Notes under the pieces: generated by a model
Told to the model about the DNA's origin: nothing
Database searches by the model: none
The model's input: only the letters and a program-made list of their open reading frames with translations
From: a virus
Direction: 5' to 3' (one strand)
DNA: 36,507 bases
IMG/VR virus record: IMGVR_UViG_3300047321_000299
In this document: positions 12,450 through 36,507 of the stretch, piece by piece
Layout of the letters: the number at the start of each line of letters is the position of its first letter
Position numbering within the stretch: position 1 is the stretch's first letter
Translations under genes and position numbers: made by a program

Positions 12450-12666
12450 GGGTGCTCGCCTCCTCAAATGGGATGTGCACGGTGGTGGTCAGTACGTCGT
12501 CGCCGTGGGTGATGCGGCGGCCCTCGCGGTCGCGGACGTACAGCAGGGCGCGCACGCCGTCGTCAACGTCCAGGTGCACGCTGCGCACAAGGGACGGCGG
12601 CAGGCCGAGGGCACGGCACACGGTGCGGACCTGCTCGGTACTCAGGGCGACAGGGATGTCGGTCAT
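12436..12666 (-). CDS. Hypothetical protein (76 aa)
   Basis: ATG 12666 forms an ATGA overlap with the terL stop, and GC3 is high. Confidence 0.6.
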   Translation of the reverse strand: MTDIPVALSTEQVRTVCRALGLPPSLVRSVHLDVDDGVRALLYVRDREGRRITHGDDVLTTTVHIPFEEASTRGTA

Positions 12667-13946
12667 GCGGGGGCCTCCTTCGGCGCGGCGAGTAGGTGAC
12701 GCCACTCGTGGGCGGTGGTGTGGACGGAGTAGCGCAGCGCGTCGGCCGAGTGGTCGTTGACCTTCAACGGCTTGTCCTCGCCGCGCTCGGTCGCTTTCGG
12801 ATCCCAGCTGTAACCGGGCATCTCGGTGAGCAGGCCGGTGCAGCTCTCATGGACGAACAGGCGCCCGGCGGCGAGGACGGACGACACGGAACGGATCCCG
12901 TCCGACACGTCGTTGTTGGCGCGGGTCACGCCCTGGTGCCCGTCGGCCCATAGCTGCGTGATGAAGCTCGCGGCGCTGGGGTCGACGAACGTCCACTCCG
13001 GTGCGACGCCCGGCGGTGTGCCGGGGCCGGCCGCAGGGTGCCGCCACTCGCCGAGCCACTCGCGCAACGCTGCGGAGTACTGCGCGTCCGTCATGCTGCG
13101 GTGCGTGGCGCGGGAGTCGTGGCGCCACTCGGCGCACGCGTACAGGCGGTCGTCGGCGCCGAGGCCGAGCAGGATTGCGGAGAAAGGGTTCGTCGTGCCG
13201 TAGTCGAGGCCGACCCAATAGCGGCGCATCTCGGGGAGGTCGGTGACGACGTGGGCCCGCTCGTCCCACATGTCGTAGATGGCGCCTTCGGCGACCACCC
13301 ACGCCCCATCGATCATGCGGCGGCGCCATAGGCCGACGTACTCGGCTGACAGGTCGGCGACGTACTCGGGCGACAGGCTCGGGTTGTCGGCCAACTTGAA
13401 GTGCCAGGCACGCAAGTTCAGTTCGGCGGCGCGGTCGAGGTATCCGGCTTTGAGCCAGTGCCGCGGGCTGTCGGGGTTGGTCGTCGCGTACAGGCGGGCG
13501 CCCGGCACGGACAGTCGGGCGAGTAGCTGCGTCCAGAATCCCTCGGGCAGGAGGGTCGCCTCGTCGACGTACGCGAGCTGCGCGGTGAGGCCTCGTAGGC
13601 GGCCCTCGGCCCGGGTGTCGGCGGCGCCGATCAGGTGGACGGTGCGGCCGAGGATCGTGGCGGTGGTGGCGCCCCGGGTGTGGTGCACGTGCTGGGCGAG
13701 GGGGCCGAACAGTGCGGCGTCCTGCAACGGCTCGAACACGTTGCGCTCGATCGTCTGGAGCGACCGCCCACAGATGATGATCAGTCCGGACGGGCCGGCC
13801 GTGGCCACGGCGATGACGAACGCGAGCAGGCTTGCGATGGTCTTGCCGGATCGCACGGACCCGTGCCACAGGTTGATGCGGGCCGTGGCGCGGCCGATGC
13901 TGCGCAGCTGCTTTCGGGAGAGGGGGAGCGCGTCGAGGTCGAGCAC
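12663..13946 (-). CDS. terL: Terminase large subunit (427 aa)
   Basis: It has a Walker A motif (GSVRSGKT), a Walker B-like motif (LAYVDEA), and C-terminal nuclease-type motifs (VGLDYG, NDHSADALRY). Confidence 0.9.
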   Translation of the reverse strand: MLDLDALPLSRKQLRSIGRATARINLWHGSVRSGKTIASLLAFVIAVATAGPSGLIIICGRSLQTIERNVFEPLQDAALFGPLAQHVHHTRGATTATILGRTVHLIGAADTRAEGRLRGLTAQLAYVDEATLLPEGFWTQLLARLSVPGARLYATTNPDSPRHWLKAGYLDRAAELNLRAWHFKLADNPSLSPEYVADLSAEYVGLWRRRMIDGAWVVAEGAIYDMWDERAHVVTDLPEMRRYWVGLDYGTTNPFSAILLGLGADDRLYACAEWRHDSRATHRSMTDAQYSAALREWLGEWRHPAAGPGTPPGVAPEWTFVDPSAASFITQLWADGHQGVTRANNDVSDGIRSVSSVLAAGRLFVHESCTGLLTEMPGYSWDPKATERGEDKPLKVNDHSADALRYSVHTTAHEWRHLLAAPKEAPA

Positions 13947-16228: not shown

Positions 16229-17110
16229 TTACGCGAACAGGGCGCCCTGTTCGCGGTCGGGGGTGAGGGTGAACAGGGCGTCGTCGGCGGCGGCCTGGCC
16301 GATCCACTCGCCGCGCCACGTTCCGGCGGTGGCTTCGGCCTCGGTGACCAGCTGCGCGGCGAACAGGGCTTCGGCGTCCTCGACAGTCTCGACGGCGGCG
16401 CCGGTCTGCTCGGCGTACTCGACGGCGTCGACGGCGCGGGCCGCGGTGGCGAATGCGACGTCGGCCGCGTTGGCGGTGAAGCAACCGGGCTCGCTGTTCG
16501 CAGTGAGCAGGTGCTCGGCCATGGCGAGGTGTCGCAGGAGGCCCCAACTCGTGCTGCGGGCGACGTCGACCCCGGCGGCCTTGAGCGTGGCGGCGGCGCG
16601 GTCGGTGTTCCAGCCGCCGAGCTCGGCCTCGACGGCGGCGCGCAGGATCGCGAGGGGTTCGGCCGGCGCCTGCTCGGCGGCGGGCTGCTCGACGGTCGCG
16701 GCGAGCGAGCGGGCGTATGCGCGCTTCTCGGCGGCGCGGTCGCACGGTACGCACAGCTCGTGTCCCTTGTTGAACAGGGCGAGCAGGTCGGAACCGTCGA
16801 CGTACTCGGAGACCTCGCGGCCGCAGAGGGTGTCGTCGTTGTTCGAGTAGTGGACGCGGCGGCCGGTGCCAACGGTGGCGTAGCGGACTCCGGCGCGCTC
16901 GGCGAGGGTCGGGCCGTCGACGGCGTGGTCGGCGGCGACCTGTTCGGCGGCGACGCGGTCGCGCTTCTCGGCCTTGGCGCACGGGGCGCAGATGTGGTTC
17001 CGGATGCCGTTGTTGGGCTCGTGCATGAGCTCGCGGCCGCAGTAGCTCGTGTGGGTGCCGGGCTTGGCGTAGTGGCCGGTGCGTCCGTAGCCGTGTGCGT
17101 AGGTGTCCAT
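16229..17110 (-). CDS. Hypothetical protein with a duplicated Cys-cluster module (293 aa)
   Basis: The internal ATG at 17110 has a GGGAGC SD. The two modules are YCGRELMHEPNNGIRNHICAPCAKAEKRD and LCGREVSEYVDGSDLLALFNKGHELCVPCDRAAEKRA. Confidence 0.7.
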   Translation of the reverse strand: MDTYAHGYGRTGHYAKPGTHTSYCGRELMHEPNNGIRNHICAPCAKAEKRDRVAAEQVAADHAVDGPTLAERAGVRYATVGTGRRVHYSNNDDTLCGREVSEYVDGSDLLALFNKGHELCVPCDRAAEKRAYARSLAATVEQPAAEQAPAEPLAILRAAVEAELGGWNTDRAAATLKAAGVDVARSTSWGLLRHLAMAEHLLTANSEPGCFTANAADVAFATAARAVDAVEYAEQTGAAVETVEDAEALFAAQLVTEAEATAGTWRGEWIGQAAADDALFTLTPDREQGALFA

Positions 17111-17157
17111 GGGGTTTGCTCCCTGGGTTGGTCGGTGCCGTGTGGAGCGGCAACGCC

Positions 17158-17188
17158 TACTGTACTCAGTACAGTACCTAGTACACAA
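17158..17188 (-). promoter_or_regulatory. Candidate sigma70-type promoter overlapped by a 19-bp perfect palindrome (operator)
   Basis: The minus strand reads TTGTGT-18 nt-TACAGT. The palindrome TACTGTACTCAGTACAGTA (17158-17176) covers the spacer and -10. This is an A+T-richer island about 50 nt upstream of ATG 17110. Confidence 0.5.
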
Positions 17189-17201
17189 GGGGGTCGGGGA
17201 A

Positions 17202-17230
17202 AGGGGCGCCGGTCAACTCCCGGCGCCCCT
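17202..17230 (-). terminator. Stem-loop / weak terminator after gene 17239..18096
   Basis: AGGGGCGCCGG-tcaactc-CCGGCGCCCCT forms an 11-bp perfect stem 8 nt after the stop. Only a short TT follows it on the minus strand. Confidence 0.5.
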
Positions 17231-17238
17231 CGGCCCGT

Positions 17239-18096
17239 TCATGCCGCGGGCTGCTCCTCGCCCCTGCGCTGGGCCGCGTCGAGGGCGGTCCACAAACCGA
17301 CCAGCTCGGCGCCCCGCCATACCCGCCGGCCTCGGTCGAGCAGCACGGGCGCGGTGCACGCCTCGCCCCGCGTGCACGTGACGGACGGTTCGCCCCCCGG
17401 CTGCGTCCGGCCGGTGAGCGGGCCGTCGCACCACGGGCATGGCCGGTCAAGGGCGAGGGTGCGCCCGTCGCGGCCGAGGGCTCGCTCGACCTTGCGACGG
17501 GCGAGCGAGGCGACGCGGGCGAGGTCGTCGAGGGTGCGGGCCGGTACCGGAGCAAACAGGGGCTGGTGCACGGTGTTGCTCGGCCTCGGCGCGGTGGTGC
17601 CTTCGCCGAGGGCGCGCCCCTCAAGCCACACCGCGGCCCAATGGAGCCCATACGCGCGGCTGCCGGGCGAGGTGGCTGCCTGGTAGTGCCACCGTGCCGG
17701 GTCGGCGGCGTCGTCCGGGTCCGGCATGGTGGCGTCGGGGTTGCCGTACGTCGGGATGGGCACGGTTCGGATGGGCCGCTGTACCACTTCGGCGATGGCG
17801 TCGGCCGTGTCGAACAGGGCCTCCTCGACGGCGAGGGCGGCGTCGAGCGCGTCGAGGTTGAGCGGGGCGGGGTGCTCGCGCAGTACGAGCGGCATGCGGC
17901 CGATGGTGTCGGCCTGGTGCTCGTCGTCAACGGGGGCGGGGCGGTCGAAGTCGCGGGCGTCGCGCGGGGGCCACTCGGCGGCCGGCGCCTGCTCGATGGC
18001 GGCGAGCAGGTCGCCCCACTGCTCGCGTACGGCGGCGAGGTCGACGGCGGCCCGGTGCGCGGCGGGGGGCGCGATGCGGTCGAGGGTGTCAGTCAC
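17239..18096 (-). CDS. Hypothetical protein with C-terminal Cys4 zinc-ribbon-like motif (285 aa)
   Basis: GTG 18096 lies 8 nt after CAGGAGCAG. The upstream part of track ORF 17239..18717 is Pro/Ser/Ala junk. The C-terminus contains CPWCDG...CTRGEAC. Confidence 0.7.
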   Translation of the reverse strand: MTDTLDRIAPPAAHRAAVDLAAVREQWGDLLAAIEQAPAAEWPPRDARDFDRPAPVDDEHQADTIGRMPLVLREHPAPLNLDALDAALAVEEALFDTADAIAEVVQRPIRTVPIPTYGNPDATMPDPDDAADPARWHYQAATSPGSRAYGLHWAAVWLEGRALGEGTTAPRPSNTVHQPLFAPVPARTLDDLARVASLARRKVERALGRDGRTLALDRPCPWCDGPLTGRTQPGGEPSVTCTRGEACTAPVLLDRGRRVWRGAELVGLWTALDAAQRRGEEQPAA

Positions 18097-21207: not shown

Positions 21208-21684
21208 TTATGCGGCCCTTCGGTATGCGGTGGGGGTCTGTGCGGTGCGGGGGGCGCGGCGGCGGTTGCGCTGGCATGCGCGGCATTGGCGGGTGCCGTT
21301 GGGGCGTATGCGGGTGTTGGCCGTGTCGAACTTGTGGCCTGCGATGCAGTGGGTTCGGGCGGCGCGTATGGCGGCGACGTTGGAGCTGCGCAGCACGTTT
21401 TCGCGGTGCGTGACGGCTTCGAGGTGGGCGGGGTTGACGCATGCGCGGGTGCGGCATCGGTGGTCGACTTCGAGGCCGGCGGGGATGGGGCCTATGTGGA
21501 GCTCGTAGGCGTAGCGGTGGGCCTTGACGTTGCGCCCGGCGGTCCAGAACCGCCCGTATCCCTTGGCGTTGGGGCGGCCGGTCCATAGGTGGCAGGGGCC
21601 GGGGGCGTCCTTGCGGAGGGAGAGGGGCCCGGCGGTGTTCACCTTGTCGGCGAATCGCTCGGCGGTTGTGGCTGCTGCGGGCAT
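21208..21684 (-). CDS. HNH endonuclease (158 aa)
   Basis: [16 protein letters not shown]...[43 protein letters not shown] is the HNH_3-type signature. Confidence 0.85.
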
Positions 21685-21797
21685 GGCACCTATCCCCGTT
21701 CCGTATGTCCCGTGAACGATCCTCGATCATCCATGGATGAAACCTACCTGTCAGGGGGGTGCGGTGGCTACTTGGGGTGCACCCCCCTGGTGAGGCT

Positions 21798-21959
21798 CTA
21801 CGCGGCCCGTAGAGCGGAGTTGGCGACGTCCGGGGCGACGATGTGCCACCCCTCGCGTTGTAGGGCTGCTACGGCGGCGCGGGCGACGGCCTCGGGCGTG
21901 CTGCCGGGGTGGTCTCGGATGGTGGCGGCGATGACGGCGGCGACGGCGTCGGGAATCAT
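21798..21959 (-). CDS. Small hypothetical protein (53 aa)
   Basis: ATG 21959 forms a TGATG overlap with the upstream stop. It is the only non-junk part of track ORF 21798..22337 ([53 protein letters not shown]). Confidence 0.55.
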
Positions 21960-22435
21960 CAGCGGCCGCCTGCGGTGTGCCGGGCGCGGCGGTCGGTGCG
22001 GGTGTTGGGCGGGGCGGTCATCAACTGGCGGGCGTAGCGGGCGGCGTCTCGGTCGCGGCGGACGCGGGCAAGGCGGTCGGCCTCGGCCTGGGCGGCGCGG
22101 TCCTGCTCGAACGCGCGGGCGCGGTCGGCGGCTTCGGCGGCGGCCTGCTCGGCGGCGGCGCGCTCGGCGAGCAGGGCGGGCCCGTCCAGCTCGTACAGGG
22201 TGCGGTAGGCGCTGTGGCCGAGGTGCTCCTCGACGATCACGTATGCGCCGTCGTCTGCCATCTGGCGGGCCATGCGGCGGGCGGCCTTGCGGTCGGGGGT
22301 GGCACGGATGGCGGGCCGGTCGGGACGGGCGTCCCATGACGCGGTGACGCGGTAGCCGTTGCGGTTGTGGGTGCGGTCGGTGGCGGCGGCCTTGCGCCTG
22401 TGGGTCTTGCCCGGGTGCTTTCCGTTGCGGTTCAT
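21959..22435 (-). CDS. Hypothetical protein (158 aa)
   Basis: The internal ATG at 22435 forms an ATGA overlap. The N-terminus is basic and the C-terminal half is coiled-coil. Confidence 0.65.
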   Translation of the reverse strand: MNRNGKHPGKTHRRKAAATDRTHNRNGYRVTASWDARPDRPAIRATPDRKAARRMARQMADDGAYVIVEEHLGHSAYRTLYELDGPALLAERAAAEQAAAEAADRARAFEQDRAAQAEADRLARVRRDRDAARYARQLMTAPPNTRTDRRARHTAGGR

Positions 22436-23136
22436 GCTGCGACCTCGGTCTGTGCGTGGTGGCGGGCGGTGGCGGCGTCGAGGCGGGACGGGTGGGCGGT
22501 GGCGCGGGTCGGCCGGCCGCGTGTGGGGTTGCGGCACTTCTCGCCGGTCGGGGCGCGGCACGGCTCGTAGGGGCACGGCACGTTGAGCGGGTCGGGGCGG
22601 CCGGTGCGGGCGAGGCGTTCGCGTTCGGCCCGGTCGGGGCGGTGGGTGGCGAGGGCGTCGGCGACGGTGCGCGGCAGGTAGGTGCCGAGGGCGGCGAGGC
22701 GGGCCTGTGCCTCGGCCTCGGGGCCCGCGGTGAGCTCCTTGAACGGCCGGGCAGGAACGGCTCCGGTGGCTACGGCCTGGCGGTCGGCGTACAGGGCGCG
22801 CTGATATCCGGCGACGTCGTCGGGGTCCAGCTCGGGGTGCCTGCTCGGCTCAAAGGTGCCCGTGTGGCGGCTGACTACGTCGGCCTTGAACGCGTGCCAC
22901 GGCCGCGATACGTCGCTGGGCTTGATCGGGTAGGGGCTGGTCGCGATGTGGTGGCGTACGGCCTGCGAGGCGTCCCACCCGAGGCCGTTGGGGTGCGGGG
23001 CCGTCGGGGGGACGTCGGCGAGGATGTCGGCCCACTGGTCGAGGGTTTCCTCGGCGGCGGCGGCGTCGGTGGGAGCGCTGCGGGGGTCGAGGCGGACGGC
23101 GTAGGCGAGCAGCGCGGCGACGTGCTGACGGATCAT
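22432..23136 (-). CDS. Hypothetical replication-module protein with C-terminal Cys cluster (234 aa)
   Basis: The internal ATG at 23136 forms an ATGA overlap with the initiator stop. The C-terminus contains VPCPYEPCRAPTGEKCRNP...HPSR. Confidence 0.65.
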   Translation of the reverse strand: MIRQHVAALLAYAVRLDPRSAPTDAAAAEETLDQWADILADVPPTAPHPNGLGWDASQAVRHHIATSPYPIKPSDVSRPWHAFKADVVSRHTGTFEPSRHPELDPDDVAGYQRALYADRQAVATGAVPARPFKELTAGPEAEAQARLAALGTYLPRTVADALATHRPDRAERERLARTGRPDPLNVPCPYEPCRAPTGEKCRNPTRGRPTRATAHPSRLDAATARHHAQTEVAA

Positions 23137-24035
23137 CGAACGTTCTCCTGGGGGTCGAGGCCGGCCGCGGCGGCGAACATGGCCTGCGCGGTGGCTACGC
23201 GGCCCTGGCGGCGAGGGCCTGCGGCGAGGGGGATCACGTCGGCTCCGGGCCCGGCGGGCTGCGCGGGGACGGTGCCGGGGGCGGGGAGCGCGGGCAGGGA
23301 CTGCCAGGCGCGCAGGAAGTACCGGGCGTGGCCTACGTCCTTCTTCGTGGCGGCCCTGACGGCGACGGCGGCGAGCATGTCGACACCGGAGCGCTTGATC
23401 AGGGCGTCGACCTTGAACCACTCACCGGGGGTGAGGTTCCACGGGACGTAGACGCGGGCGGCGGTGATCTGGCCGACCAGCTGCTCGGCGAACTGGGGGA
23501 TGACGGCCGAGGGCGGGCCCTCTTCCCTCACTCCTTCATTCACTCTCTCTATTGGGTGGTAGAGGGGTCCGGAATTCGGACCACAAGCGGTCTGAGATTC
23601 GGACCACAAACCGGCCTCGGGCTCTGCGGGTTGTGGTCCGGGATTCGGACCACTAGCGGGGGCGGTTGTGGTCTGAGATTCGGACCGGTAGCCGTTTGTG
23701 GTCTGAGATTCGGACCCCCGGGTGTCGTGCGTTTGCGGTCCGGATTTCGGACCGGTAGCGCGCACGTAGTCGACGGCTCCGGGGATGCGGTAGGTGGCCG
23801 CTCGACTGCCTGCGGCGGCCTCGGTGATCTCCAGCTCGCCGGACGCGAGGGCGGCCGCGACGGCGTCGAGGACGGTCGAGCGGGCCGCGTTGACCCTGCG
23901 CACCATTTCGGCGGTGCCCATGCGCACGGTGGCCGTGGCGTCGGGTGCTTTGTCGGCGACGGCGAGCAGGACGAGACGCGCGTTACCGCGGCTGCGGGAC
24001 CGGGTCCATACCCAATCCATGGCGTCGAGGGTCAC
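23133..24035 (-). CDS. Replication initiator / replisome-organiser-like protein (300 aa): N-terminal winged HTH, repeat linker, DnaD-like C-terminus
   Basis: GTG 24035 has a CAGGAGC SD. The N-terminus AMDWVWTRSRSRGNARLVLLAVADKA is typical of phage wHTH initiators. The C-terminus ...VGHARYFLRAWQSL resembles the ends of DnaD-type domains. The gene contains the iteron array. Confidence 0.65.
   Translation of the reverse strand: MTLDAMDWVWTRSRSRGNARLVLLAVADKAPDATATVRMGTAEMVRRVNAARSTVLDAVAAALASGELEITEAAAGSRAATYRIPGAVDYVRATGPKSGPQTHDTRGSESQTTNGYRSESQTTTAPASGPNPGPQPAEPEAGLWSESQTACGPNSGPLYHPIERVNEGVREEGPPSAVIPQFAEQLVGQITAARVYVPWNLTPGEWFKVDALIKRSGVDMLAAVAVRAATKKDVGHARYFLRAWQSLPALPAPGTVPAQPAGPGADVIPLAAGPRRQGRVATAQAMFAAAAGLDPQENVR
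23566..23753. repeat. Iteron array (6 x 17 bp, GGTCYG-N5-CGGACC), candidate origin of replication
   Basis: Copies lie at 23566-82, 23589-605, 23635-51, 23670-86, 23700-16 and 23737-53. Three are identical (GGTCTGAGATTCGGACC). Positions were cross-checked against the codon phase of the host ORF. Confidence 0.75.
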
Positions 24036-24108
24036 GGGGTGGTGCTCCTGTTCGGGGGCGTGGCGCCCGGGGCGAGGGGCGCGGCGGCTCGTTCTCGCCC
24101 CGGGGCCG

Positions 24109-24315
24109 TCACTGGGGGCGGCGGTAGAACGGGTGGGTGTTGGCGGGCTGGTGCTCGTCGCACATGGGGCCGCACGGGTACGGGCGGGCCGGTTGGGCGC
24201 CGCACCGGGGGTTGCCGTAGTTGCATGTGGGGGCGGGCCGGTCGGCGGGCGGCGGCCCGTTGTAGCGCTTGGCGGGCGAGGCGGCCGGTCGGCGACGGCG
24301 GGCGGCGGGCGTCAC
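24109..24315 (-). CDS. Small Cys-rich protein (68 aa)
   Basis: GTG 24315 forms a GTGA overlap with the HNH stop, and almost every third codon position is G/C. It contains CNYGNPRCGAQPARPYPCGPMC. Confidence 0.5.
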   Translation of the reverse strand: MTPAARRRRPAASPAKRYNGPPPADRPAPTCNYGNPRCGAQPARPYPCGPMCDEHQPANTHPFYRRPQ

Positions 24316-24899
24316 CCGGCGGCCCTGCGGGCTCTGTTGGCGTCCTCGTGGCACGTGCCGCAGTACGACGTGCCGTCGCTCGCGTAGCGGCGGTGGGTGG
24401 CGACGGCGTGGCCGCGGGTGCACTCGGTGATGCGGGGGGTGCGGCCGAGCAGGGCGCCGAACTGGGAGCGCACGCGGTTGCGGCCCTGCTCGTCTTCGAG
24501 GTGATCGGGCGCGACACAGTCGGGCCGGCCGCACTCCGGTTTGACGTAGCCGATGGGGTCGCGGCCGTGCCGGATCCGAAACGCCACGATGCGGGCGGTG
24601 TGGGTGCGCTCCCTGTACGTCATGACCGGTGTGGCGCCGACCTTGGTGCGTCGCCCGGTCCATTCGAGGTGTCCGCCGTCGCCCTCGGCGGGGCGGGTGT
24701 ACGTCGCCCACTTCTGCTCGATGGTGAGCGGCGAACGGTTCCGCGGCAGGGTACGGGTGGCGGGGGCGATGCCGAGCAGGCGGCGGTAGTGGGCCGGGGT
24801 GCTCTTGTCGACGTTCAGCTCGCGGGCGATGGCGCGGTTGGTGGCGCCCTCTTTCAGCAGCTCGACAATGCGGCTGCGGATGGCGTCAGAGATGGGCAT
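24312..24899 (-). CDS. HNH endonuclease with N-terminal HTH (195 aa)
   Basis: The HTH is IVELLKEGATNRAIARELNVDKST. The segment GGHLEWTGRR...ARIVAFRIRHGRDPIGYVKPECGRPDCVAPDHLE is an HNH_3-type signature. A GGAAGGA SD lies upstream. Confidence 0.8.
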   Translation of the reverse strand: MPISDAIRSRIVELLKEGATNRAIARELNVDKSTPAHYRRLLGIAPATRTLPRNRSPLTIEQKWATYTRPAEGDGGHLEWTGRRTKVGATPVMTYRERTHTARIVAFRIRHGRDPIGYVKPECGRPDCVAPDHLEDEQGRNRVRSQFGALLGRTPRITECTRGHAVATHRRYASDGTSYCGTCHEDANRARRAAG

Positions 24900-24947: not shown

Positions 24948-25667
24948 TTACTGCTCGGCGGGGGCGAGGGCGGGCAGCACGATCGGGGCGAGGTCCCCGC
25001 GGCGCCACGCCTGGGCGACCAACTCGCGGCCGTCGACGGGCGACGACTTCGACGTGCGAGAGAACGTCATGCGGTGCGAGCGGGCGCGGCTGGGCCGGAT
25101 CTCGACTCCGGGCACGTCGTGGACCTCGCCCGTTTCCGGGTCGGCCCACTGCGTCACACCGGCCGCGGTCATCGCGGCGAGCATCAGCGAACTGAATGCC
25201 GGTCGCACGGACTTGACGATTTCAATCGTGGTCTCGGCCGGGTACGCCTCGGCGACCCATGCCCGAAACGCTGCGGCGTCGATGATCTGCGCGGCGGTCT
25301 CGCCACTGGTCCGGCTGATGGAACCGACCTTGGTGCCGTCCGGCAACGTCGCGTCGACCTTCGTCGTGCCGGTCGCCTCGTACTGCTGGTCGAGCAGGTA
25401 CTGAACGTCCGTCTTCGCGGCGGCGAGGGCCTCGCCGATCTCCTTGGACAGCGCGGCGAGGACGGCCTCGCGGGTAACGGCCTCACGGACGGCGGCCCGG
25501 TTGGCGGCGGCCCGCTCGGCTGCGGCGCGCTCGATCTGCTCGGCGGTCGGCTCCTGCTCGCCCTGCTCGGCGCGCTCGGCGGCGGCGAGGCGGGCGAGGC
25601 CGAGGCGCTCAACGATGGTGTCTTCGTGGTGCTTGTAGATCTGCTCGGCGAGGGTCTGCTCGGTCAT
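24948..25667 (-). CDS. Hypothetical recombination-module protein (239 aa); weak resemblance to Mu Gam-like architecture
   Basis: ATGA overlap with the erf stop. It has an N-terminal coiled coil and a C-terminal domain (..LPDGTKVGSI...GEVHDVPGVEIRPSRARSHRMTF). The Gam-like idea rests on architecture only. Confidence 0.7.
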   Translation of the reverse strand: MTEQTLAEQIYKHHEDTIVERLGLARLAAAERAEQGEQEPTAEQIERAAAERAAANRAAVREAVTREAVLAALSKEIGEALAAAKTDVQYLLDQQYEATGTTKVDATLPDGTKVGSISRTSGETAAQIIDAAAFRAWVAEAYPAETTIEIVKSVRPAFSSLMLAAMTAAGVTQWADPETGEVHDVPGVEIRPSRARSHRMTFSRTSKSSPVDGRELVAQAWRRGDLAPIVLPALAPAEQ

Positions 25668-26719
25668 GCGGTCGCCCCGTTCTGGCGGGCGGCGTCGAGC
25701 AGGTCGTCGCGCAGGGCGCGCAGGGCGGCGGTGGTCGCGGCCTGCGGTGCCGTCTTGTGGTGGGTGACCATGACGGCGTCGGCTTCCTCGCGGGTGAGGC
25801 CGGCGGACTTGGCGGCGTCGTACATCTCGCCGAGGGCGGCGGCGTGCTCCTGGTCCTCGACGACACCCGCGGCGGGGGCCTGCTGCTGCCGCTGCGGCTT
25901 GTTCGCGGCGGCCTGCTTCTGCGCGGCCACGGCGTCGAGGCTGGCGAGGTATTCCGGCGGCGCCCCGGCGGCGACGGCATCGGCGCGCACCTTGGCGAAC
26001 GCCTGCGGGCTGGGCGCGGCGGTCGCCTCGGCGAGGTAGTCGCGGCTCGGGGCCTGCTGTGCCGGGTCGGGCCCGCCACGGTTGGGGCGCTGCTGCCGCC
26101 CGTTCTGCGGGCGCTGCTGGTTGCGCTGCTGCCCGTTCTGCTGCCGCTGGTTGCGGCGCTGCTGGTTCTGCTGCCGCTCGGCGCGGTGCTCCTCGGACAC
26201 GGGGTGTTCGCGGTCGCCGTCGTCGATGCTGCGGCCGTCCACAGGCAGCATGAACAGGGTGAACAACAGGTACTTGAGCGCCGCGGACTGAGCCTTGTTC
26301 GTCGCCTTGTCCGCAAAGTCGAACGCCTCGCCCGGCACAGTCGCGATCAGGCAGTCACCCGCGGGCCCGTAGATGCGATACCGCATCATGATCATGGTCC
26401 GCGTCATCTTCCCGTCGCGGTCCTGCTTGTGGCTGGCGATGCTCGGCAGGATGAACACGCCGTGCGTCCGCATCGGCCCGGCCATGGCCGACATGACGTC
26501 GTCGATACCGCGGAAGTTGTAGTTCTGCTGCGTGTTCTTCTGGTCCTTGCCCACGGGCATCGCATCCCGCATGACGCCACCGATCGCAACGAAGACGCGC
26601 GGGGCGTCCGCGGGGGCGCCCTCGGGTGCGGGCTCGTAAGTGACCTCGACGGCGGGCAGGTTGGCGGACGGCATCGGCGCGGCGGGCGAGTATCCGGGGT
26701 GCAGTGCGGTGACGGTCAT
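25664..26719 (-). CDS. erf: ERF-family single-strand annealing protein (351 aa)
   Basis: VGKDQKNTQQNYNFRGIDDVMSAMAGPMRTHGVFILPS matches the ERF core pattern. A Gln/Arg-rich low-complexity linker follows. Confidence 0.8.
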   Translation of the reverse strand: MTVTALHPGYSPAAPMPSANLPAVEVTYEPAPEGAPADAPRVFVAIGGVMRDAMPVGKDQKNTQQNYNFRGIDDVMSAMAGPMRTHGVFILPSIASHKQDRDGKMTRTMIMMRYRIYGPAGDCLIATVPGEAFDFADKATNKAQSAALKYLLFTLFMLPVDGRSIDDGDREHPVSEEHRAERQQNQQRRNQRQQNGQQRNQQRPQNGRQQRPNRGGPDPAQQAPSRDYLAEATAAPSPQAFAKVRADAVAAGAPPEYLASLDAVAAQKQAAANKPQRQQQAPAAGVVEDQEHAAALGEMYDAAKSAGLTREEADAVMVTHHKTAPQAATTAALRALRDDLLDAARQNGATA

Positions 26720-27754: not shown

Positions 27755-27990
27755 GCCGCGTCCGCGGTGTCTGCGGGGAACAGGGCGGCGGGGGTGACTC
27801 CGTAGGTGCGCTCGATGGCGGCGAGCGCGGGGCCGGCGGGGATGCCTCGGCCGCTGGTCCACCGACGGACAGTGGCGTAAGGGCAGTTGAGGCGGGCGGC
27901 GATCGCGACGGCGGTGTTGTCGCCGAGCTCGGCGGCGGCGGCGCGCAGGGGGCGGGGGTTGAACGGCACGGCGGTACCTCGCTGATTCAT
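27751..27990 (-). CDS. Cro-like / XRE-type HTH protein, first gene of the leftward lytic operon (79 aa)
   Basis: The start is the internal ATG at 27990. The HTH is NTAVAIAARLNCPYATVRRWTSGRGIP. The gene is divergent from the repressor gene across an A+T-richer switch region. Confidence 0.7.
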   Translation of the reverse strand: MNQRGTAVPFNPRPLRAAAAELGDNTAVAIAARLNCPYATVRRWTSGRGIPAGPALAAIERTYGVTPAALFPADTADAA

Positions 27991-28000
27991 GAGCGATCGT

Positions 28001-28039
28001 GTATCGATCACGGATGAAACATAACACGTATCGATCACG
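28001..28039. promoter_or_regulatory. Candidate operators: two copies of GTATCGATCACG (28001-12, 28028-39)
   Basis: This is an exact 12-mer direct repeat with 27-bp periodicity. It lies 11-49 nt upstream of the Cro-like ATG and brackets a TATGTT -10-like hexamer on the minus strand. Confidence 0.5.
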
Positions 28040-28247
28040 CATGGAACGACCAAGTGGAGGGGTTGACTCCGATGTGTGCGAGGTACGAGGCTTCGTAATG
28101 AGAATGTGAAAGAAGCGTGCTCAATCGAGCATGTGTGCGATAAGTTGTACGTGCAACTACTGGATAAGCGGGCGAGGGGGGACCTCGGCATGTGTGGAAT
28201 CTGTGCGCACCTGTCAAAAAACCGTTCATGCGCGATACATTGCCCGC

Positions 28248-28652
28248 ATGACAAGACCAGAGCCGCCCCTGACGGCGAGCATCGGCGAGTGGCTCGGATG
28301 GGCCCTCCCGCGCCGCGGGTACGACCTAGAAGAGCGCGGTAGCCGGGCGCGCTTCGCCGAAGCCTCCGGCATCCCCGTCGCGACGGTCTCACGACTCCTG
28401 CGGGACGCAGGGTCACCCGACGCCCGCACGCTCCTCGCAGTCGCCAAGACACTCGAAGTCCCGGTAATGCCGCTACTCGCGCGCGCCGGCCTCCTGCCAC
28501 TCGAAGAGCTCTACGAGTCCGACGCGCAAACCCCGACGAAGATCTCTTCACATGAAGCGCTAGCGGCCCTCGGCGTGACCGAAGAGGCCGACCAAATCGC
28601 AGTCCTCAGCATGATTCGCGCCCTCCGCGCAAAGGGGGAGAGCGCAACCTAG
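28248..28652 (+). CDS. cI-like XRE-family repressor (134 aa), probably leaderless
   Basis: The HTH is RARFAEASGIPVATVSRLLRDAGSPDARTLLAVAKTL. ATG 28248 has no SD. TACATT (28236-41) ends 6 nt upstream of it. The 39 codons further upstream in the track ORF are Cys-rich junk in the intergenic region. Confidence 0.75.
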   Translation: MTRPEPPLTASIGEWLGWALPRRGYDLEERGSRARFAEASGIPVATVSRLLRDAGSPDARTLLAVAKTLEVPVMPLLARAGLLPLEELYESDAQTPTKISSHEALAALGVTEEADQIAVLSMIRALRAKGESAT

Positions 28653-28664
28653 GAAGGTCCACCC

Positions 28665-28991
28665 GTGTCATCACGCACAACCCTGTACCTGACTGCCGCG
28701 CTTTCCGCCGGACTTCTCTTGATCGGCCTCACCATCCTGATCACCGGTGTACTCACGGACAGACGGGTCGGGTTGGTCATCCAGACCGGTACCACCACGA
28801 CCGCCATCGGCGTCATCGCCACCGTGGTCAACGGCTACCGGGCACTGAACGAATACATCACGTCACGCGTGGCGCACGCCGACAGCGCCGCACTCGTGAA
28901 GGCCATCGTTCAGCACGACGCCCAATTCACCGCGCCGAGCACCGTCGTTGAGTTCGACGCGGCACGACGTCAACGGGAGAACGCAACGTGA
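28665..28991 (+). CDS. Two-TM membrane protein in the lysogeny module (108 aa)
   Basis: GTG 28665 lies 8 nt after GGAAGG. The TM helices are LYLTAALSAGLLLIGLTILITGVL and TTTAIGVIATVV. About 20% of codons end in A/T, versus far fewer in neighbouring phage genes. Confidence 0.7.
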   Translation: MSSRTTLYLTAALSAGLLLIGLTILITGVLTDRRVGLVIQTGTTTTAIGVIATVVNGYRALNEYITSRVAHADSAALVKAIVQHDAQFTAPSTVVEFDAARRQRENAT

Positions 28992-30610
28992 CAGCAGGAC
29001 CAACTCAGCACGTGCCAAGCACGTTCCAGGGCTTGCCGACCGATGAGGACGGCGAGCCCTGGCTCGGTTATATCCGGGTGAGCACGTGGAAAGAGGAGAA
29101 GATCAGCCCCGAGCTGCAAGAGGCAGCCCTACGGGCGTGGGCAAAGCGCACCGGGCGCCGCCTGCTCGAACCGTTCATCACCGACCTCGACGCCACCGGC
29201 CGGAACTTCAAGCGGCGCATCATGGGCGCCATCAAGCGCGTTGAGGACGGCGAGGCGCGCGGCATCGCCGTATGGAAATACAGCCGCTTCGGCCGCAGCC
29301 GCGACGGTATCGCCGTCAACCTCAAACGCCTTGAGGACGCGGGCGGGACGCTGGAGTCTGCGACCGAGGAGGGCGACGCGCGTACGGCGACCGGCCGACT
29401 GCAACGCGGGATCCTGTTCGAGTTCGCGGCATATGAATCCGACGTGCGCGGCGAGCAGTGGAAGGAGACCCATGACCACCGCCGCTACAAACTGCACCTG
29501 CCCGCCACCGGCCGCCCCCGCTTCGGCTACATCTGGCACCCCCGCCGACTCCCCGACGGCCGCGGGGGCTGGACCACGCAAGAGGAGAGATACCTAGCCG
29601 ACCCGAAAACGGGGCCAGTCATGGCCGACCGATACCGGCAGTACACCGACGGAGACGCGTTCTATTCGCTCGTCGGCGAGCTCAACGCGGCCGGCCACCG
29701 GACGGTACGCGGCGGGCTGTGGTCCGAACAGACACTGATCCGGTACATGGACTCCGGATTTGCCGCAGGCCTGCTCCGCATCCATGACCCAAAGTGCCTG
29801 TGCAACCCAGAGACGCGCAACAACTGTCAAAACTGCCTGTTCGTCCCTGGGGCGCAAGAGGAACTGATCGATGCCGAGCTGTGGCAGCAGTACCGCGACC
29901 GCCGCGAGGAGGTGCGGAACACACCGCCGCGGGCCCGCCGTGCCACGTACATGCTGACCAACCTTGTCCGGTGCGGGCAGTGCCGCGGCACGACGCCCGC
30001 GAACTCTGCCGTGCGCGTCATCAACGACGTTCCGACCAACGTCCTCGGCTACTCGTACACATGCGGCCGGCGGGCGGTACAGGCCGCCCACGGCTGTGAC
30101 GGAGTATGGGTCAAGCGCGAAGACGTCGAGGCCGAGGTGTTGAAGTGGCTCGCCAAGGAGGCCGCCCCCGGAATCGACACCGCGCCGAGCATCCCTCAGC
30201 AGCGCATCGAGCAGCGCGACCACCGCGCCGCCGCCGCGCTCGACCGTGCCAGGCTGCAAGCCGAGGTCGACAAACATGCCGCCGCCCTCGCCAACCTGCG
30301 GGCCCAACGCGCAGCCGACCCGGACGAATTCGAGCCGGGCGAGTATGAGGCCGCCCGCGATCTCATCCGGAAGAAGCAGGCGGCGACGCAGGCCGCATTG
30401 GAACGGGTCTCTACCGTCGAGACCACCCCGCACCGCGCCGACTATGTGCCTCTGCTGGTCGGCACGGTCGCGGAGTGGCCGACGCTGGACACGCGCGGGA
30501 GAAACGGCCTACTCAAGCAGCTTGCGCGACGGGTGGCACTGGTACGCACCGAGGACGGCACAAAGGTCGTGGTGCATCCTGTGTGGGAGCCGGACCCGTG
30601 GGCCGAGTAG
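28988..30610 (+). CDS. int: Large serine recombinase (integrase, 540 aa)
   Basis: It has a resolvase-type N-domain (GYIRVSTWKEEKISPELQ..., GIAVWKYSRFGRS, RLQRGILFEFAAYES). It also has a recombinase domain, a Cys cluster (CGQCRG...CG...C) and a C-terminal coiled coil. The start forms a GTGA overlap with the upstream gene. Confidence 0.9.
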   Translation: MTAGPTQHVPSTFQGLPTDEDGEPWLGYIRVSTWKEEKISPELQEAALRAWAKRTGRRLLEPFITDLDATGRNFKRRIMGAIKRVEDGEARGIAVWKYSRFGRSRDGIAVNLKRLEDAGGTLESATEEGDARTATGRLQRGILFEFAAYESDVRGEQWKETHDHRRYKLHLPATGRPRFGYIWHPRRLPDGRGGWTTQEERYLADPKTGPVMADRYRQYTDGDAFYSLVGELNAAGHRTVRGGLWSEQTLIRYMDSGFAAGLLRIHDPKCLCNPETRNNCQNCLFVPGAQEELIDAELWQQYRDRREEVRNTPPRARRATYMLTNLVRCGQCRGTTPANSAVRVINDVPTNVLGYSYTCGRRAVQAAHGCDGVWVKREDVEAEVLKWLAKEAAPGIDTAPSIPQQRIEQRDHRAAAALDRARLQAEVDKHAAALANLRAQRAADPDEFEPGEYEAARDLIRKKQAATQAALERVSTVETTPHRADYVPLLVGTVAEWPTLDTRGRNGLLKQLARRVALVRTEDGTKVVVHPVWEPDPWAE

Positions 30611-34424: not shown

Positions 34425-36507
34425 CTAAAGGGCGACGATGGTGGGGTGGGCAAGGCTCACGGGCGTGCCCTTGGTCTGCGGCTTGGTGATGCCGTTGACG
34501 GAACGGACCACGGTCATCGTCTGCGGGCTGGACGTGGACACCGAGGCGTCCGGGCGGAGTTGGAGATTCCACCAGTACGAGACATCGGTCAGTGCCGGGG
34601 ACGCCCCGATGCGGGCACGGATCCGGGCCCGTGATGTCAGAGCTGGGGCGGTGGCAGTCACCGTGATGAACGTCCACTGACCGGCGGGTACGGCTATCGG
34701 AACCGACGGGGAGGTTGAGAGAGCCACATTCGCGGCGTCGAACCAGTCGGTGACGATCCTCATGTCGGACCACGCGACGGGTGAGTACACCCACCCGGAC
34801 ATCGTGTACGAGGCGCCGGGGGTGATGCTGCCGACAGCCGTGTTGACGGCCTGCGGGGCGGACGCGGATGTTGCGCCCGTACCCGTCACCCGCATTGAGG
34901 CGGTCGCCCCTGCGGCGCGGTGCACGACGGTGGTGTCGTAGGCGATCGTCGCCGAGAGTCCCGACCAGCCGGTGAGGTCGGACAGCAACAAGGGGTTGTC
35001 GCCGAGAACGGGGCCGGCCGCCACGGCGGTGACAACCTCGCCGCCCACCCTGAGATCAAACGGGTAGTCGCGGGGGTCAGTTACCCACGGCCGTCCGACC
35101 GTGGTTGCCACCGACAATGTCGTCGCCGACGGGGTTGCATCGGCGGCGAGCTGTGATCCGTCCGTGTCCACCCGGCTCACCGGGCTGCCGACCACGCCCA
35201 CCGACCACGGCCCGGCGGGCGTGCAGTTCTGCGTAATGGTCCACGTGAACGGGGCGAGGGTCTCGGTGTATCCGCGCATGTGCTGATCGATCGCACCGGG
35301 TGCCAGCCACGGCGGGGGGTTGGCGATGGTGAGACGGTCGCCAATGTCCATGGCAAGGACGTCGGGAATCAGATGCGGCGCGGTGTGCAGCCACACCGTG
35401 ACCGTCGGATACCGGGCTTCGTCCCACGTGCCCAAGTGCATGCGCCATGCGGCGAGCCGCTCGGGCTGCGTGTCGTCGCCGAGGGACAGGGTCACCGCCT
35501 CGTCGTAGATGCCGACACCGGCCGGCGGTGGCAGTACGGACAGGGGCCCGTCCTCGCGGACGGCCCGGCCGGATGATCCGCCGTCCCGCGTGACCGTGAC
35601 GTCGTTGCGTAGGTGCTGGTCGTCCTCGGTCGGTTCCAGCGGCGGCGGTACCTCCCCCGCGGCTGTGTAGTCCAGGGTCAGGGCGGGGCGCTGGTTGTAG
35701 AGCGATGTGCGGTCGCGGTAGATCAGTCCGAGGCGGTCGCGGTTCTCGTACAGGATCCCGCCGTCTGTCCCTGCTGCTTCTTCGAGCAGGGACAGGAGAG
35801 GGGCCGGGCGCTGCGGGCCCATGCGCTCGGTGGCCGCGGTCGTGTCGCCGTCGACGGTGGACAGGTGGACCTGTGTGGCCTCCTCGATGGCGAGGCGTCG
35901 CATTCGGTCGAGGGCCGTCTCGCCCGTGAATCCGTTGTCCGCCCCCTCGAAAATGGTGCTGGTGGGGGGCGAGCCTGCGACCCCGGTGCCCGGGGTGGCG
36001 AACACGGCGAGGTGCCCGATACCCATCCCCTCGGTACCGGCTCCCCAGGTGGCGGAGACTCCGGCGACACGGCCCTGTGCGGTGATGGGGTTCGTCGATA
36101 CGTACCAGCGGATGTTGGTCACGACGTCGCGCCACGTGGCTTGGAGCATGGTGCGGCCGCCACCCGCGTTACCGGTGTAGAACGCAAGGCGGTTCCAGAC
36201 TCCGACGAACGCGCTGAGCGCGCCCGGGTCGTTGTACGTGACGCCCCCGATCAGGGCGTCGTCCTGGTCGCGGGCCTCGATCCGGATTCCGGCCGTGGAC
36301 GCGTAGAGGACGGCCGTTTGCATCGCGGCGCCGCCCACCTGCACGCGCAGGATCTCCGTCTGTGTGGTGGGCAGGGTGCGCAGGTTGTAGACCATTTCGA
36401 CCTGCCAACCGGTCGTGGTTGTGGTCGGCACCCGGGCGCTGAGGGTGGCGGGGTTCTTGATGGTGGGTAGCGCCGAGGATCCGCCGAGGGTGTCGACGGC
36501 GGCCCAA
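34425..36507 (-). CDS. Tail-tip protein, 3' part (about aa 386-1079) of the ORF that starts at 1284
   Basis: The frame of track ORF 34425..36431 stays open to the window end. It is in phase with the open frame at 1-1284 through the 127-bp overlap. It contains the conserved actinophage minor-tail block (GGILYENRDRLGLIYRDRTSLYNQRPALTLDY...DDQHLRNDVTVTRDGGSS) and a C-terminal CBM-like beta module. Confidence 0.85.
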   Translation of the reverse strand, partial: WAAVDTLGGSSALPTIKNPATLSARVPTTTTTGWQVEMVYNLRTLPTTQTEILRVQVGGAAMQTAVLYASTAGIRIEARDQDDALIGGVTYNDPGALSAFVGVWNRLAFYTGNAGGGRTMLQATWRDVVTNIRWYVSTNPITAQGRVAGVSATWGAGTEGMGIGHLAVFATPGTGVAGSPPTSTIFEGADNGFTGETALDRMRRLAIEEATQVHLSTVDGDTTAATERMGPQRPAPLLSLLEEAAGTDGGILYENRDRLGLIYRDRTSLYNQRPALTLDYTAAGEVPPPLEPTEDDQHLRNDVTVTRDGGSSGRAVREDGPLSVLPPPAGVGIYDEAVTLSLGDDTQPERLAAWRMHLGTWDEARYPTVTVWLHTAPHLIPDVLAMDIGDRLTIANPPPWLAPGAIDQHMRGYTETLAPFTWTITQNCTPAGPWSVGVVGSPVSRVDTDGSQLAADATPSATTLSVATTVGRPWVTDPRDYPFDLRVGGEVVTAVAAGPVLGDNPLLLSDLTGWSGLSATIAYDTTVVHRAAGATASMRVTGTGATSASAPQAVNTAVGSITPGASYTMSGWVYSPVAWSDMRIVTDWFDAANVALSTSPSVPIAVPAGQWTFITVTATAPALTSRARIRARIGASPALTDVSYWWNLQLRPDASVSTSSPQTMTVVRSVNGITKPQTKGTPVSLAHPTIVAL
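36381..36507. repeat. Terminal overlap, copy 2 (identical to 1-127)
   Basis: Same 127-nt string as the window start. The offset of 36,380 is consistent with ORF-track anchors on both sides. Confidence 0.95.

Follow-up and report, generated by a model that had tools for sequence, protein, structure and literature searches.

A candidate replication origin embedded in the initiator gene of a phage related to Streptomyces temperate phages

Why does a phage gene carry, within its own coding sequence, six copies of a palindrome that occurs nowhere else in the genome? IMG/VR virus record IMGVR_UViG_3300047321_000299, a stretch of 36,507 nucleotides that we call the window, raises this question at 23518-23753, where six 17-bp repeats lie next to a G-free tract inside the gene at 23133..24035. 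An earlier note, made from the letters alone, proposed that the segment is an iteron-type origin located in an initiator gene, following the logic of lambda O and its ori. The computational analysis described here supports that proposal through the family to which the initiator belongs, through the arrays present in its relatives, and through the conservation of the tract and its coincidence with a stability minimum. We consider it likely that 23518-23753 is a theta-type replication origin housed within the gene that encodes its initiator, and every computational test capable of refuting this reading came out in its favor.

The gene at 23133..24035 lies on the minus strand and encodes 300 amino acids from a GTG start at 24035. 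Its product matches phrog_6643, “replication initiation protein,” over residues 1-261 (E 1.8e-48) and, weakly, phrog_391, “replication initiation O-like,” over residues 1-151 (2e-7); it has no match in Pfam (E <= 0.1) or NCBIfam. In an AlphaFold2 model based on an alignment of 60 homologues, confidence (pLDDT) exceeds 90 at residues 1-90 and 175-250 and falls below 50 at residues 99-171. Translated onto the minus strand, this corresponds to an N-terminal winged helix (23760-24035), a linker predicted to be disordered (~23514-23759), and a helical C-terminal domain (~23286-23513) followed by a tail. The N-domain elements assigned by DSSP are H3-12, H18-29, E36-39, H41-48, H52-65, E69-72, and E80-83. 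The helix-turn-helix (HTH) and β-wing, codons 39-92 (23760..23921, minus strand), are the presumed iteron reader, with the recognition helix at residues 52-65 (nt 23841-23882). Codons 95-157 hold the six repeats and codons ~161-173 the tract, and the disordered segment spans residues 99-171. Thus, the entire DNA element is translated as disordered linker. Because the amino acid sequence of this linker is largely unconstrained, a cis-acting element can reside inside the gene.

The repeats are confined to this one place. Across the 36.5-kb window, GGTCYGNNNNNCGGACC has six exact matches, all at 23566-23753, and zero elsewhere; in dinucleotide-preserving shuffles, matches average 0.10 and never exceed two. 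When two mismatches are allowed, only chance-level matches join the six in the window, and the GGTCYGNNNNNCGGACC search reveals no other repeat cluster in the genome that might take the role of origin. The copies start at 23566, 23589, 23635, 23670, 23700, and 23737, i.e., 23, 46, 35, 30, and 37 bp apart from start to start. Thus, the six copies of GGTC(C/T)G-N5-CGGACC that the earlier note had described are clustered and unique in the window, and its three identical copies, its 23-46 bp spacing, and the six peptides it listed all hold when recomputed from coordinates and translation.

Individually, iteron 1 (23566..23582, GGTCCGGAATTCGGACC) has perfect 6-bp arms and a right ACAA extension, is closest to the tract, and encodes GPNSGP in codon phase 0. 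Iterons 2 (23589..23605), 4 (23670..23686), and 5 (23700..23716) are identical, each reading GGTCTGAGATTCGGACC, and are in phase 1: iteron 2 has the right ACAA extension and encodes WSESQT, iteron 4 has TTGT on its left and GGTAGC on its right and encodes RSESQT, and iteron 5 has TTGT on its left and encodes GSESQT. Iteron 3 (23635..23651, GGTCCGGGATTCGGACC) has TTGT on its left and ACTA on its right and encodes GPNPGP in phase 0. Finally, iteron 6 (23737..23753, GGTCCGGATTTCGGACC), with TTGC on its left and GGTAGC on its right, encodes GPKSGP, also in phase 0. The flanks shared by several copies, which had likewise been remarked on before, prove to be polar, and the repeat unit is longer than 17 bp. 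Specifically, CGGACCACAA extends copies 1-3 rightward, its complement TTGTGGTC extends copies 3-5 leftward (copy 6 has TTGCGGTC in that place), and CGGACCGGTAGC is found at the 23670 and 23737 copies. Viewed in coding orientation, four units point in the same direction and are followed by two inverted ones that adjoin the tract.

The relation of the repeats to the reading frame indicates what is being preserved. Copies 1, 3, and 6 are read in phase 0 as GPxxGP, and copies 2, 4, and 5 in phase 1 as SESQT. One DNA word is therefore kept in two reading frames, so that a peptide repeat is excluded as the selected object. In the window gene, the G+C content of third codon positions (GC3) drops from 0.88 (N-domain) and 0.93 (C-domain) to 0.59 across the repeats and 0.56 across the tract. 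Across the family, amino acid identity in the linker is 0.47, compared with 0.72-0.73 in the domains. Judged from these coding sequences, the array and the tract are under selection that acts on the DNA itself within the linker-coding segment.

We found ~144 homologues of the initiator, all from Streptomyces or soil metagenomes and mostly labeled “hypothetical”; an identical protein is encoded on a 36,547-nt JGI contig. The nearest annotated phages are the Streptomyces phages ToastyFinz, Eklok, SoJo/Tubberson, Picard, Mojorita, and SV1 (54-61% protein identity), in which labels for the homologue include “DNA binding protein,” “HTH DNA-binding domain protein,” “replication initiation protein,” and “RepA-like replication initiator.” The 17-mer of the window is absent from these nearest annotated phages. 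Eklok carries six palindromes of its own, GTCCGGGATTCCCGACC, as do ToastyFinz (GGGCCGGATTCCGGCCC) and SoJo (GGGCCGGAATCCGGCCC), in each case with position in the gene and spacing nearly as in the window. Scanning one genome for each species yielded 31 Streptomyces prophage loci, and an exact protein look-up added three closer relatives (65-70% identity). The set compared here contains 36 homologous genes: three from annotated phages, 29 from the scanned prophage loci, three from the look-up, and that of the window.

In at least 33 of these 36 genes, an unbiased 17-mer repeat search combined with inspection finds five or six palindromes at nt ~280-470; those of loci L031 and L032 were identified by eye, and that of L033 is degenerate. 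In coding orientation, the spacing in relatives is 36/37 (or 28), 30, 24/35, 46, and 23. The codon phases differ by lineage, being 0,1,1,0,1,0 in some, 0,0,0,0,1,0 in others, and all 0 in still others. Thus, the comparison with related phages that the earlier note had called for shows that the number, place, and spacing of the sites are kept while peptide, frame, and palindrome sequence change in concert. This is the opposite of the pattern named there as damaging to the idea, namely, a conserved peptide with scrambled 17-mers. Variant arrays also exist: loci L004, L026-L028, and L030 have 5-6 copies in a single frame, spaced 42-42-30-24 or 24-30-42-30-24, and in L030 the downstream open reading frame (ORF) has 464 amino acids versus the usual ~235.

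The palindromes fall into at least eight sequence classes, with one class per genome for all copies. They are GGTCCG...CGGACC (the window), GGTCGG...CCGACC, GGTCGG...CCGGAC, GGTCCG...CCGACC, GGTCGG...CGGACC, GGCCCG...CGGGCC, GGGCCG/GGACCG...CGGCCC (the majority class), and GCCCCG...GGGGC. Arm pairs were counted in the 26 genes that fit standard spacing templates; Eklok, L004, L026-L028, L030, and L035, in which the arrangement differs or the center is shifted, stand outside these counts, and their repeats are evident. Pair 3-15 is G-C 58 times, T-A 33, A-T 8, and C-G 5, plus A.C 33 and G.T 15, and pair 5-13 is C-G 125 times and G-C 9. Dyad symmetry is thus kept even as both arms change. Arm identity is 0.92 among copies within a genome versus 0.81 for orthologous copies from genomes of different classes. 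From these alignments, the arm pattern is one of concerted evolution, as expected for sites read by one protein whose specificity has shifted.

Which protein would that be? We asked how well sequence identity predicts “same repeat class” for 528 pairs of loci, expressed as the area under the curve (AUC). Residues 39-92, i.e., the HTH and wing, give 0.997; the C-terminal domain gives 0.987, the downstream zinc-finger protein 0.919, and residues 1-38 (helices 1-2) 0.771. Alignment columns 60, in the recognition helix, and 70, 80, and 83, in the wing, split the majority class from the others without overlap. Nature has also supplied chimeras. Loci L014, L020, L021, L025, L027, and L028 have a minority-type first helix but the majority recognition helix (VSRSTARAAVDAAL) together with majority repeats; thus, repeat class follows the recognition helix. 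These patterns support, without proving, the HTH and wing as the putative repeat reader and disfavor the downstream protein in that role.

The second component, the tract at 23518..23553, is a candidate DNA-unwinding element (DUE). It comprises 36 nt that are G-free on the plus strand and C-free and purine rich on the coding strand, where they encode ..PIERVNEGVREEG.., and it is the longest G-free run in the window, twice the runner-up of 18 nt. First-order Markov simulations reach a 36-nt G-free run in 3 of 1000 cases. The tract had been described before as exceptional in this genome, G-free, relatively A+T rich, and polypyrimidine; these descriptions stand, the last with a slight qualification, since 4 A accompany the 32 pyrimidines among its 36 plus-strand nucleotides. 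GC content is 44% over 23528-23563 versus 71.3% window-wide. Among 40-bp segments of the genome, 23522-23561 ranks second lowest in duplex stability, with a mean nearest-neighbor energy of -1.32 versus a genome mean of -1.67 kcal/mol per bp, and the segments that rank beside it lie outside called genes. Twelve nucleotides separate the tract from iteron 1, on the promoter-distal flank of the array.

Third-position conservation in the tract exceeds that in the domains. The tract codons (~161-173) include rare ones such as ATA, AGA, AAT, GAA, GGA, and AGG, and in most homologues the coding strand follows the consensus ATAGAGGGAGTGAGTGAAGGAGTGAGGGAG, C-free over 30-36 nt. Across the family, third-position identity in codons 159-172 is 0.84 and GC3 is 0.53, compared with 0.67-0.71 and 0.91-0.93, respectively, in the domains; several third positions of the tract are an invariant A or T. 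Moreover, the tract is kept across repeat classes while the iterons diverge. Its ATAGA anchor is missing in five homologues (L004, L026-L028, and L030). By these alignment measures, the tract is conserved at the DNA level beyond coding need.

Separately, the coding strand of the tract has a period-4 pattern, roughly (A-R-K-G)n in ~7 units, with a self-identity of 0.59 at lag 4 versus ~0.3 at most other lags; period 4 is odd for coding DNA, in which period 3 is expected. Elsewhere in the genome, the lowest GC content (~51% over 250 nt) and the least stable DNA occur at 27975-28260, which separates the leftward early operon from rightward genes toward a 540-amino acid ORF at 28988-30610 and is presumably the immunity or lysis–lysogeny switch region. 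Other short low-stability spots are 17151-17190, in the gene gap 17110-17239, and 21714-21753, in the gene gap 21642-21959.

Fold comparisons place the initiator among winged-helix proteins, with resemblance to phage O-like and replisome-organizer folds. Compared with PDB sequences, the family profile has a single marginal match, to the MarR-type winged HTH of AdcR (E 0.031), an alignment from which residues 52-65 can be identified as the recognition helix and residues 69-83 as the wing. A BFVD fold search returned 42 matches below 1e-3, many of which span both domains. They include “Replisome organizer” proteins and “Putative replication protein O [phage Min27]”; the E-value for “replication protein O” is 8.7e-4, and that for “lambda GpO N-terminal” is 1.3e-3. 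The layout of the predicted structure is lambda-O-like, with a winged helix, a disordered linker, and a helical domain.

The boundaries of this gene are easily misjudged. The JGI gene call begins at Met6 and gives 295 amino acids, whereas the conserved start is the GTG at 24035, which is supported by the TLDA.DWVW motif, invariant in homologues. Owing to the GC3 collapse across the origin-coding linker, a simple GC3-based gene caller kept only 23133-23531 of the initiator. Just upstream of the start lies a perfect 11-bp inverted repeat, CCCGGGGCGAG (24066-24076) and CTCGCCCCGGG (24094-24104), with a 17-nt loop. The same 11-bp stem precedes the homologous gene in ToastyFinz, Eklok, and SoJo, and no T-run follows the stem. 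It could be an operator, a terminator that lacks a U-tract, or an RNA element, and it possibly falls within a small ORF whose end overlaps the initiator start in a GTGA.

The following sequence of events is conceivable for the origin. The winged-helix N-domain of the initiator would bind the six 17-bp dyad-symmetric iterons, probably as dimers, a step suggested by the dyad symmetry, the concerted evolution, and the co-variation with the HTH and wing. The initiator–iteron complex on supercoiled DNA would then destabilize the tract at 23518-23553, as the position, stability, and DNA-level conservation of the tract suggest. Finally, the C-terminal domain would recruit the host replicative helicase, primase, and polymerase, possibly aided by the zinc-finger protein and the phage single-strand DNA-binding protein (SSB); for this step, the sole basis is analogy together with the failure to detect phage replication enzymes. 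Scans of 25 genes with PHROG and Pfam, among which several products have no assigned function, revealed no helicase, primase, or polymerase family, in agreement with what the earlier note had said of the phage.

Several observations weigh against the origin reading. The Pfam families Phage_rep_O, RepA_N (PF06970), and SPP1 G38P (pfam09524) do not match the initiator, and its PDB Foldseek matches are generic winged helices, all with E >= 0.05. The tract is just relatively AT rich (44-55% GC), and its conservation could have a sequence-specific cause instead of melting. The C-domain predicts repeat class nearly as well as do the HTH and wing (0.987 vs. 0.997); the co-variation thus reflects linkage to a large extent and, taken alone, is not specific to the N-domain. 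The zinc-finger protein resembles no helicase loader by PDB sequence, NCBIfam, or Foldseek (best E 1.4). Finally, no GC-skew switch is seen at 23518-23753. Nearly all genes lie on the minus strand, and skew is positive over them and flips only across the plus-strand integrase region. Skew here tracks the direction of transcription and is thus uninformative about an origin.

One extension of the origin reading takes up the sequence-specific alternative for the tract. It holds that the tract is a single-strand element recognized by its sequence, functionally akin to DnaA-trios, and that the iteron classes form a replication-specificity system. We regard this combination as doubtful. If it holds, the tract may be read by the initiator C-domain or the coupled zinc-finger protein and not be a passive AT-rich melting element. 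Such an element could suit genomes of 70% GC, in which AT-rich DUEs inside genes are costly. Likewise, the at least eight iteron/recognition-helix classes may represent a rapidly diversifying incompatibility or exclusion system among Streptomyces temperate phages.

Of the explanations that dispense with an origin at this site, the one that fares best is that the palindromes are operators or transcription roadblocks for the initiator or another phage protein, acting in autoregulation or superinfection exclusion, and that the origin lies elsewhere. Palindromic sites for winged-helix dimers are typical operators, the top folds are of the MarR, Fur, and TubR type, a conserved inverted repeat is present immediately upstream of the initiator gene, and GC skew gives no origin signal. 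Nonetheless, we judge this explanation improbable. A six-site array of conserved spacing in a seemingly dispensable linker, together with a conserved low-stability tract in a gene of an initiator family, is the canonical layout of an origin (PMC7466680, PMC5737612, PMC5703833), the genome has no second repeat cluster to act as an alternative origin, and regulation would leave both the conserved melting tract and the family assignment unexplained. A scan for sigma-70-type promoters and terminators around the initiator gene gave nothing meaningful. A search of the window for host DnaA boxes (TTGTCCACA, <=1 mismatch) yielded a single chance-level match at 26307 and none near the candidate origin.

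Somewhat less probable still is the notion that the true repeat reader and origin binder is the coupled zinc-finger protein, for which Pfam offers the description “putative DNA-binding phage zinc finger.” This protein does have a predicted DNA-binding zinc finger, its gene is always adjacent, and its identity correlates with repeat class (AUC 0.92). That correlation, however, is below that of the HTH and wing (0.997), and pairs of loci with different repeat classes can be up to 84% identical in the zinc-finger protein. The dyad-symmetric 17-mers suit a dimeric winged helix, and in the precedents the binder is the product of the gene that contains the origin.

Two further ideas are very unlikely, to a similar degree. 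According to the first, the repeats form mRNA or antisense RNA hairpins that act on translation, stability, or pausing of the initiator message. Each unit could indeed fold into a stem of 6 bp closed by a loop of 5 nt, at -9.4 kcal/mol for the perfect copies, and the arms co-vary across lineages. On the mRNA-sense strand, however, three copies out of six contain a C.A mismatch, and family-wide the non-Watson–Crick pairs of that strand are C.A-type in 41 cases, G.U-type in 17, and other in 27, with no RNA-compatible bias. The copies of a genome also share both arms and a GAATC-type center, which an RNA stem does not need, and an Rfam search of the window matched no family. According to the second, the array serves packaging (pac/cos) or partition (as a centromere-like site) and is recognized by a winged-helix protein, in the manner of pac sites within genes for small terminases or of TubR and tubC. 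The best PDB fold match is TubR (E 0.05), a winged-helix centromere binder of iterated repeats; other matches are to Fur, MarR, and the RepA_N-type N-domain 4pql_B (E 0.14). Yet the gene belongs to a replication-initiator PHROG and resides in an early recombination/replication module (ERF, SSB, HNH) that is distant from the terminase at 12663-13946. In addition, a serine integrase gene is carried by the phage as well as its relatives, and partition genes were not seen. Least credible is selection on a Gly/Pro/Ser low-complexity peptide linker with the DNA repeats as a by-product: GPxSGP-like peptides do recur within the linker, but the two frames within one gene, the frame patterns that differ between lineages, the retention of site number and spacing at an amino acid identity of just 0.47, and the use of rare A/T-ending codons speak against it, and the frame analysis excludes it.

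The surroundings of the gene fit an early region. The zinc-finger protein gene (22432..23136, minus strand) encodes a helical protein of 234 amino acids and has an ATGA overlap with the initiator gene that suggests translational coupling. Its product has a C-terminal zinc finger (Phage_zn_bind_8, 1.3e-8) and matches phrog_8924 (2.3e-71), and the gene is next to that of the initiator in all relatives seen. Annotations for it range from “helicase loader” (SoJo) and “DnaC-like helicase loader” (Eastland) to “zinc finger protein” and, in many genomes, “cell surface glycoprotein.” A model from a 48-sequence alignment has a pLDDT of 83.6, and neither sequence nor fold matches solved loaders; the “helicase loader” label for 22432-23136 is therefore unsupported. 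A role as a partner in replisome recruitment is possible. Within its N-terminal part, 240 nt at 22877-23120 have 76-81% DNA identity to 14 further phage records, seven of which are named Streptomyces sanglieri phages, including AxeJC, Piccadilly, Ignacio, and Eastland, and none of which has megablast similarity to the remainder of the 3.3-kb query. Thus, the N-terminus of the partner gene is a more widely shared module than the initiator.

Beyond this pair, the only other recognizable replication-fork component is the phage SSB (20702..21205, minus strand; phrog_44, 3.9e-41). An HNH gene is located at 21208-21642, ERF at 25664-26719, and a gene for an HTH-plus-HNH endonuclease at 24312-24899, between the recombination genes and the initiator. 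In relatives, this last slot holds a DNA methyltransferase (ToastyFinz) or hypothetical proteins (Eklok), and it looks like a variable insertion point. The 540-amino acid ORF at 28988-30610 is likely the serine integrase, by synteny with relatives. Window bases 1-127 are identical to 36381-36507, which indicates a circular assembly and a complete genome of ~36,380 bp, with a permuted start inside the structural genes.

Our literature search found no study of replication in this Streptomyces phage group, and its initiators are mostly labeled “hypothetical,” “DNA binding protein,” or “HTH domain protein.” The locus described here provides a testable origin-plus-initiator candidate for widespread Streptomyces temperate phages and prophages, including SV1, Picard, ToastyFinz, SoJo, and Eklok, with ~140 homologues. 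Because several natural specificity classes exist, the modules could become small, mutually compatible Streptomyces replicons. The matched variants of iteron and recognition helix also constitute a natural collection of data on how the specificities of a winged-helix protein and its site shift together. Finally, the GC3 collapse at embedded origins can mislead GC3-based and automatic gene callers in high-GC genomes.

How does this locus compare with known systems? The layout itself is already familiar from lambda, SPP1, and pSK41, and it is here extended to high-GC actinophages. In lambda and Stx phages, the initiator gene has the origin at its center, and 4-6 dyad-symmetric iterons are followed downstream by an easily melted tract (PMC7466680). 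Lambda O consists of a DNA-binding domain at the N-terminus, an origin-encoded linker, and a C-terminal domain, and extra iterons add linker residues (PMC7466680). The window shares with lambda an array of at least four dyad-symmetric sites in the linker-coding part (six here, at codons 95-157), an easily melted tract on the promoter-distal side of the iterons, and a downstream gene co-expressed with the initiator; resemblance to O itself is suggested by the weak phrog_391 “O-like” match and the BFVD matches to O proteins. It differs in that Pfam Phage_rep_O is unmatched and the iterons, 17-bp units spaced irregularly by 23-46 bp, are unrelated in sequence. The melting tract is purine/pyrimidine asymmetric and merely relatively AT rich in a genome of 71% GC, the downstream protein is not P-like, with no match to a P- or DnaC-like loader, and the host is a high-GC Gram-positive bacterium.

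In SPP1, oriL lies within gene 38 and combines G38P boxes with a neighboring AT-rich DUE; the initiator lacks an AAA+ domain, and a phage SSB is involved (PMC5737612). The BFVD matches of the window initiator named “Replisome organizer” recall this system. Unlike the window phage, in which no helicase, second repeat cluster, or G38P Pfam match was detected, SPP1 has its own helicase G40P, the loader G39P, and a second origin, oriR. In the same host genus, Chang, Kim and Cohen reportedly described in 1996 a “phage-like” internal origin of the Streptomyces linear plasmids pSLA2 and pSCL, with origin-forming repeats inside rep1, which encodes the essential DNA-binding replication protein. For Streptomyces phages, our literature search returned nothing that describes the origin proposed here. 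A study of mycobacteriophage RepA could not identify repeats (PMC7157519).

The plasmid pSK41 offers a three-part arrangement, with Rep boxes central in rep, an origin-encoded central linker that is dispensable, an N-terminal winged helix, and a genus-specific C-domain (PMC5703833). Iterons of the RepA_N type are semi-palindromic, with inverted sub-repeats that converge on an A/T-rich center (PMC7145576). The window resembles these systems in its three-part layout, in the location of its boxes centrally in a variable linker-coding segment, and in its iteron center, GAATC or GAATT. It differs in that the RepA_N Pfam family is unmatched, with only the weak fold match to 4pql_B (E 0.14), and in that the element belongs to a phage and not a plasmid. 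The window initiator would work like the O, G38P, and RepA_N systems, but it would do so from within a family of its own, the uncharacterized phrog_6643.

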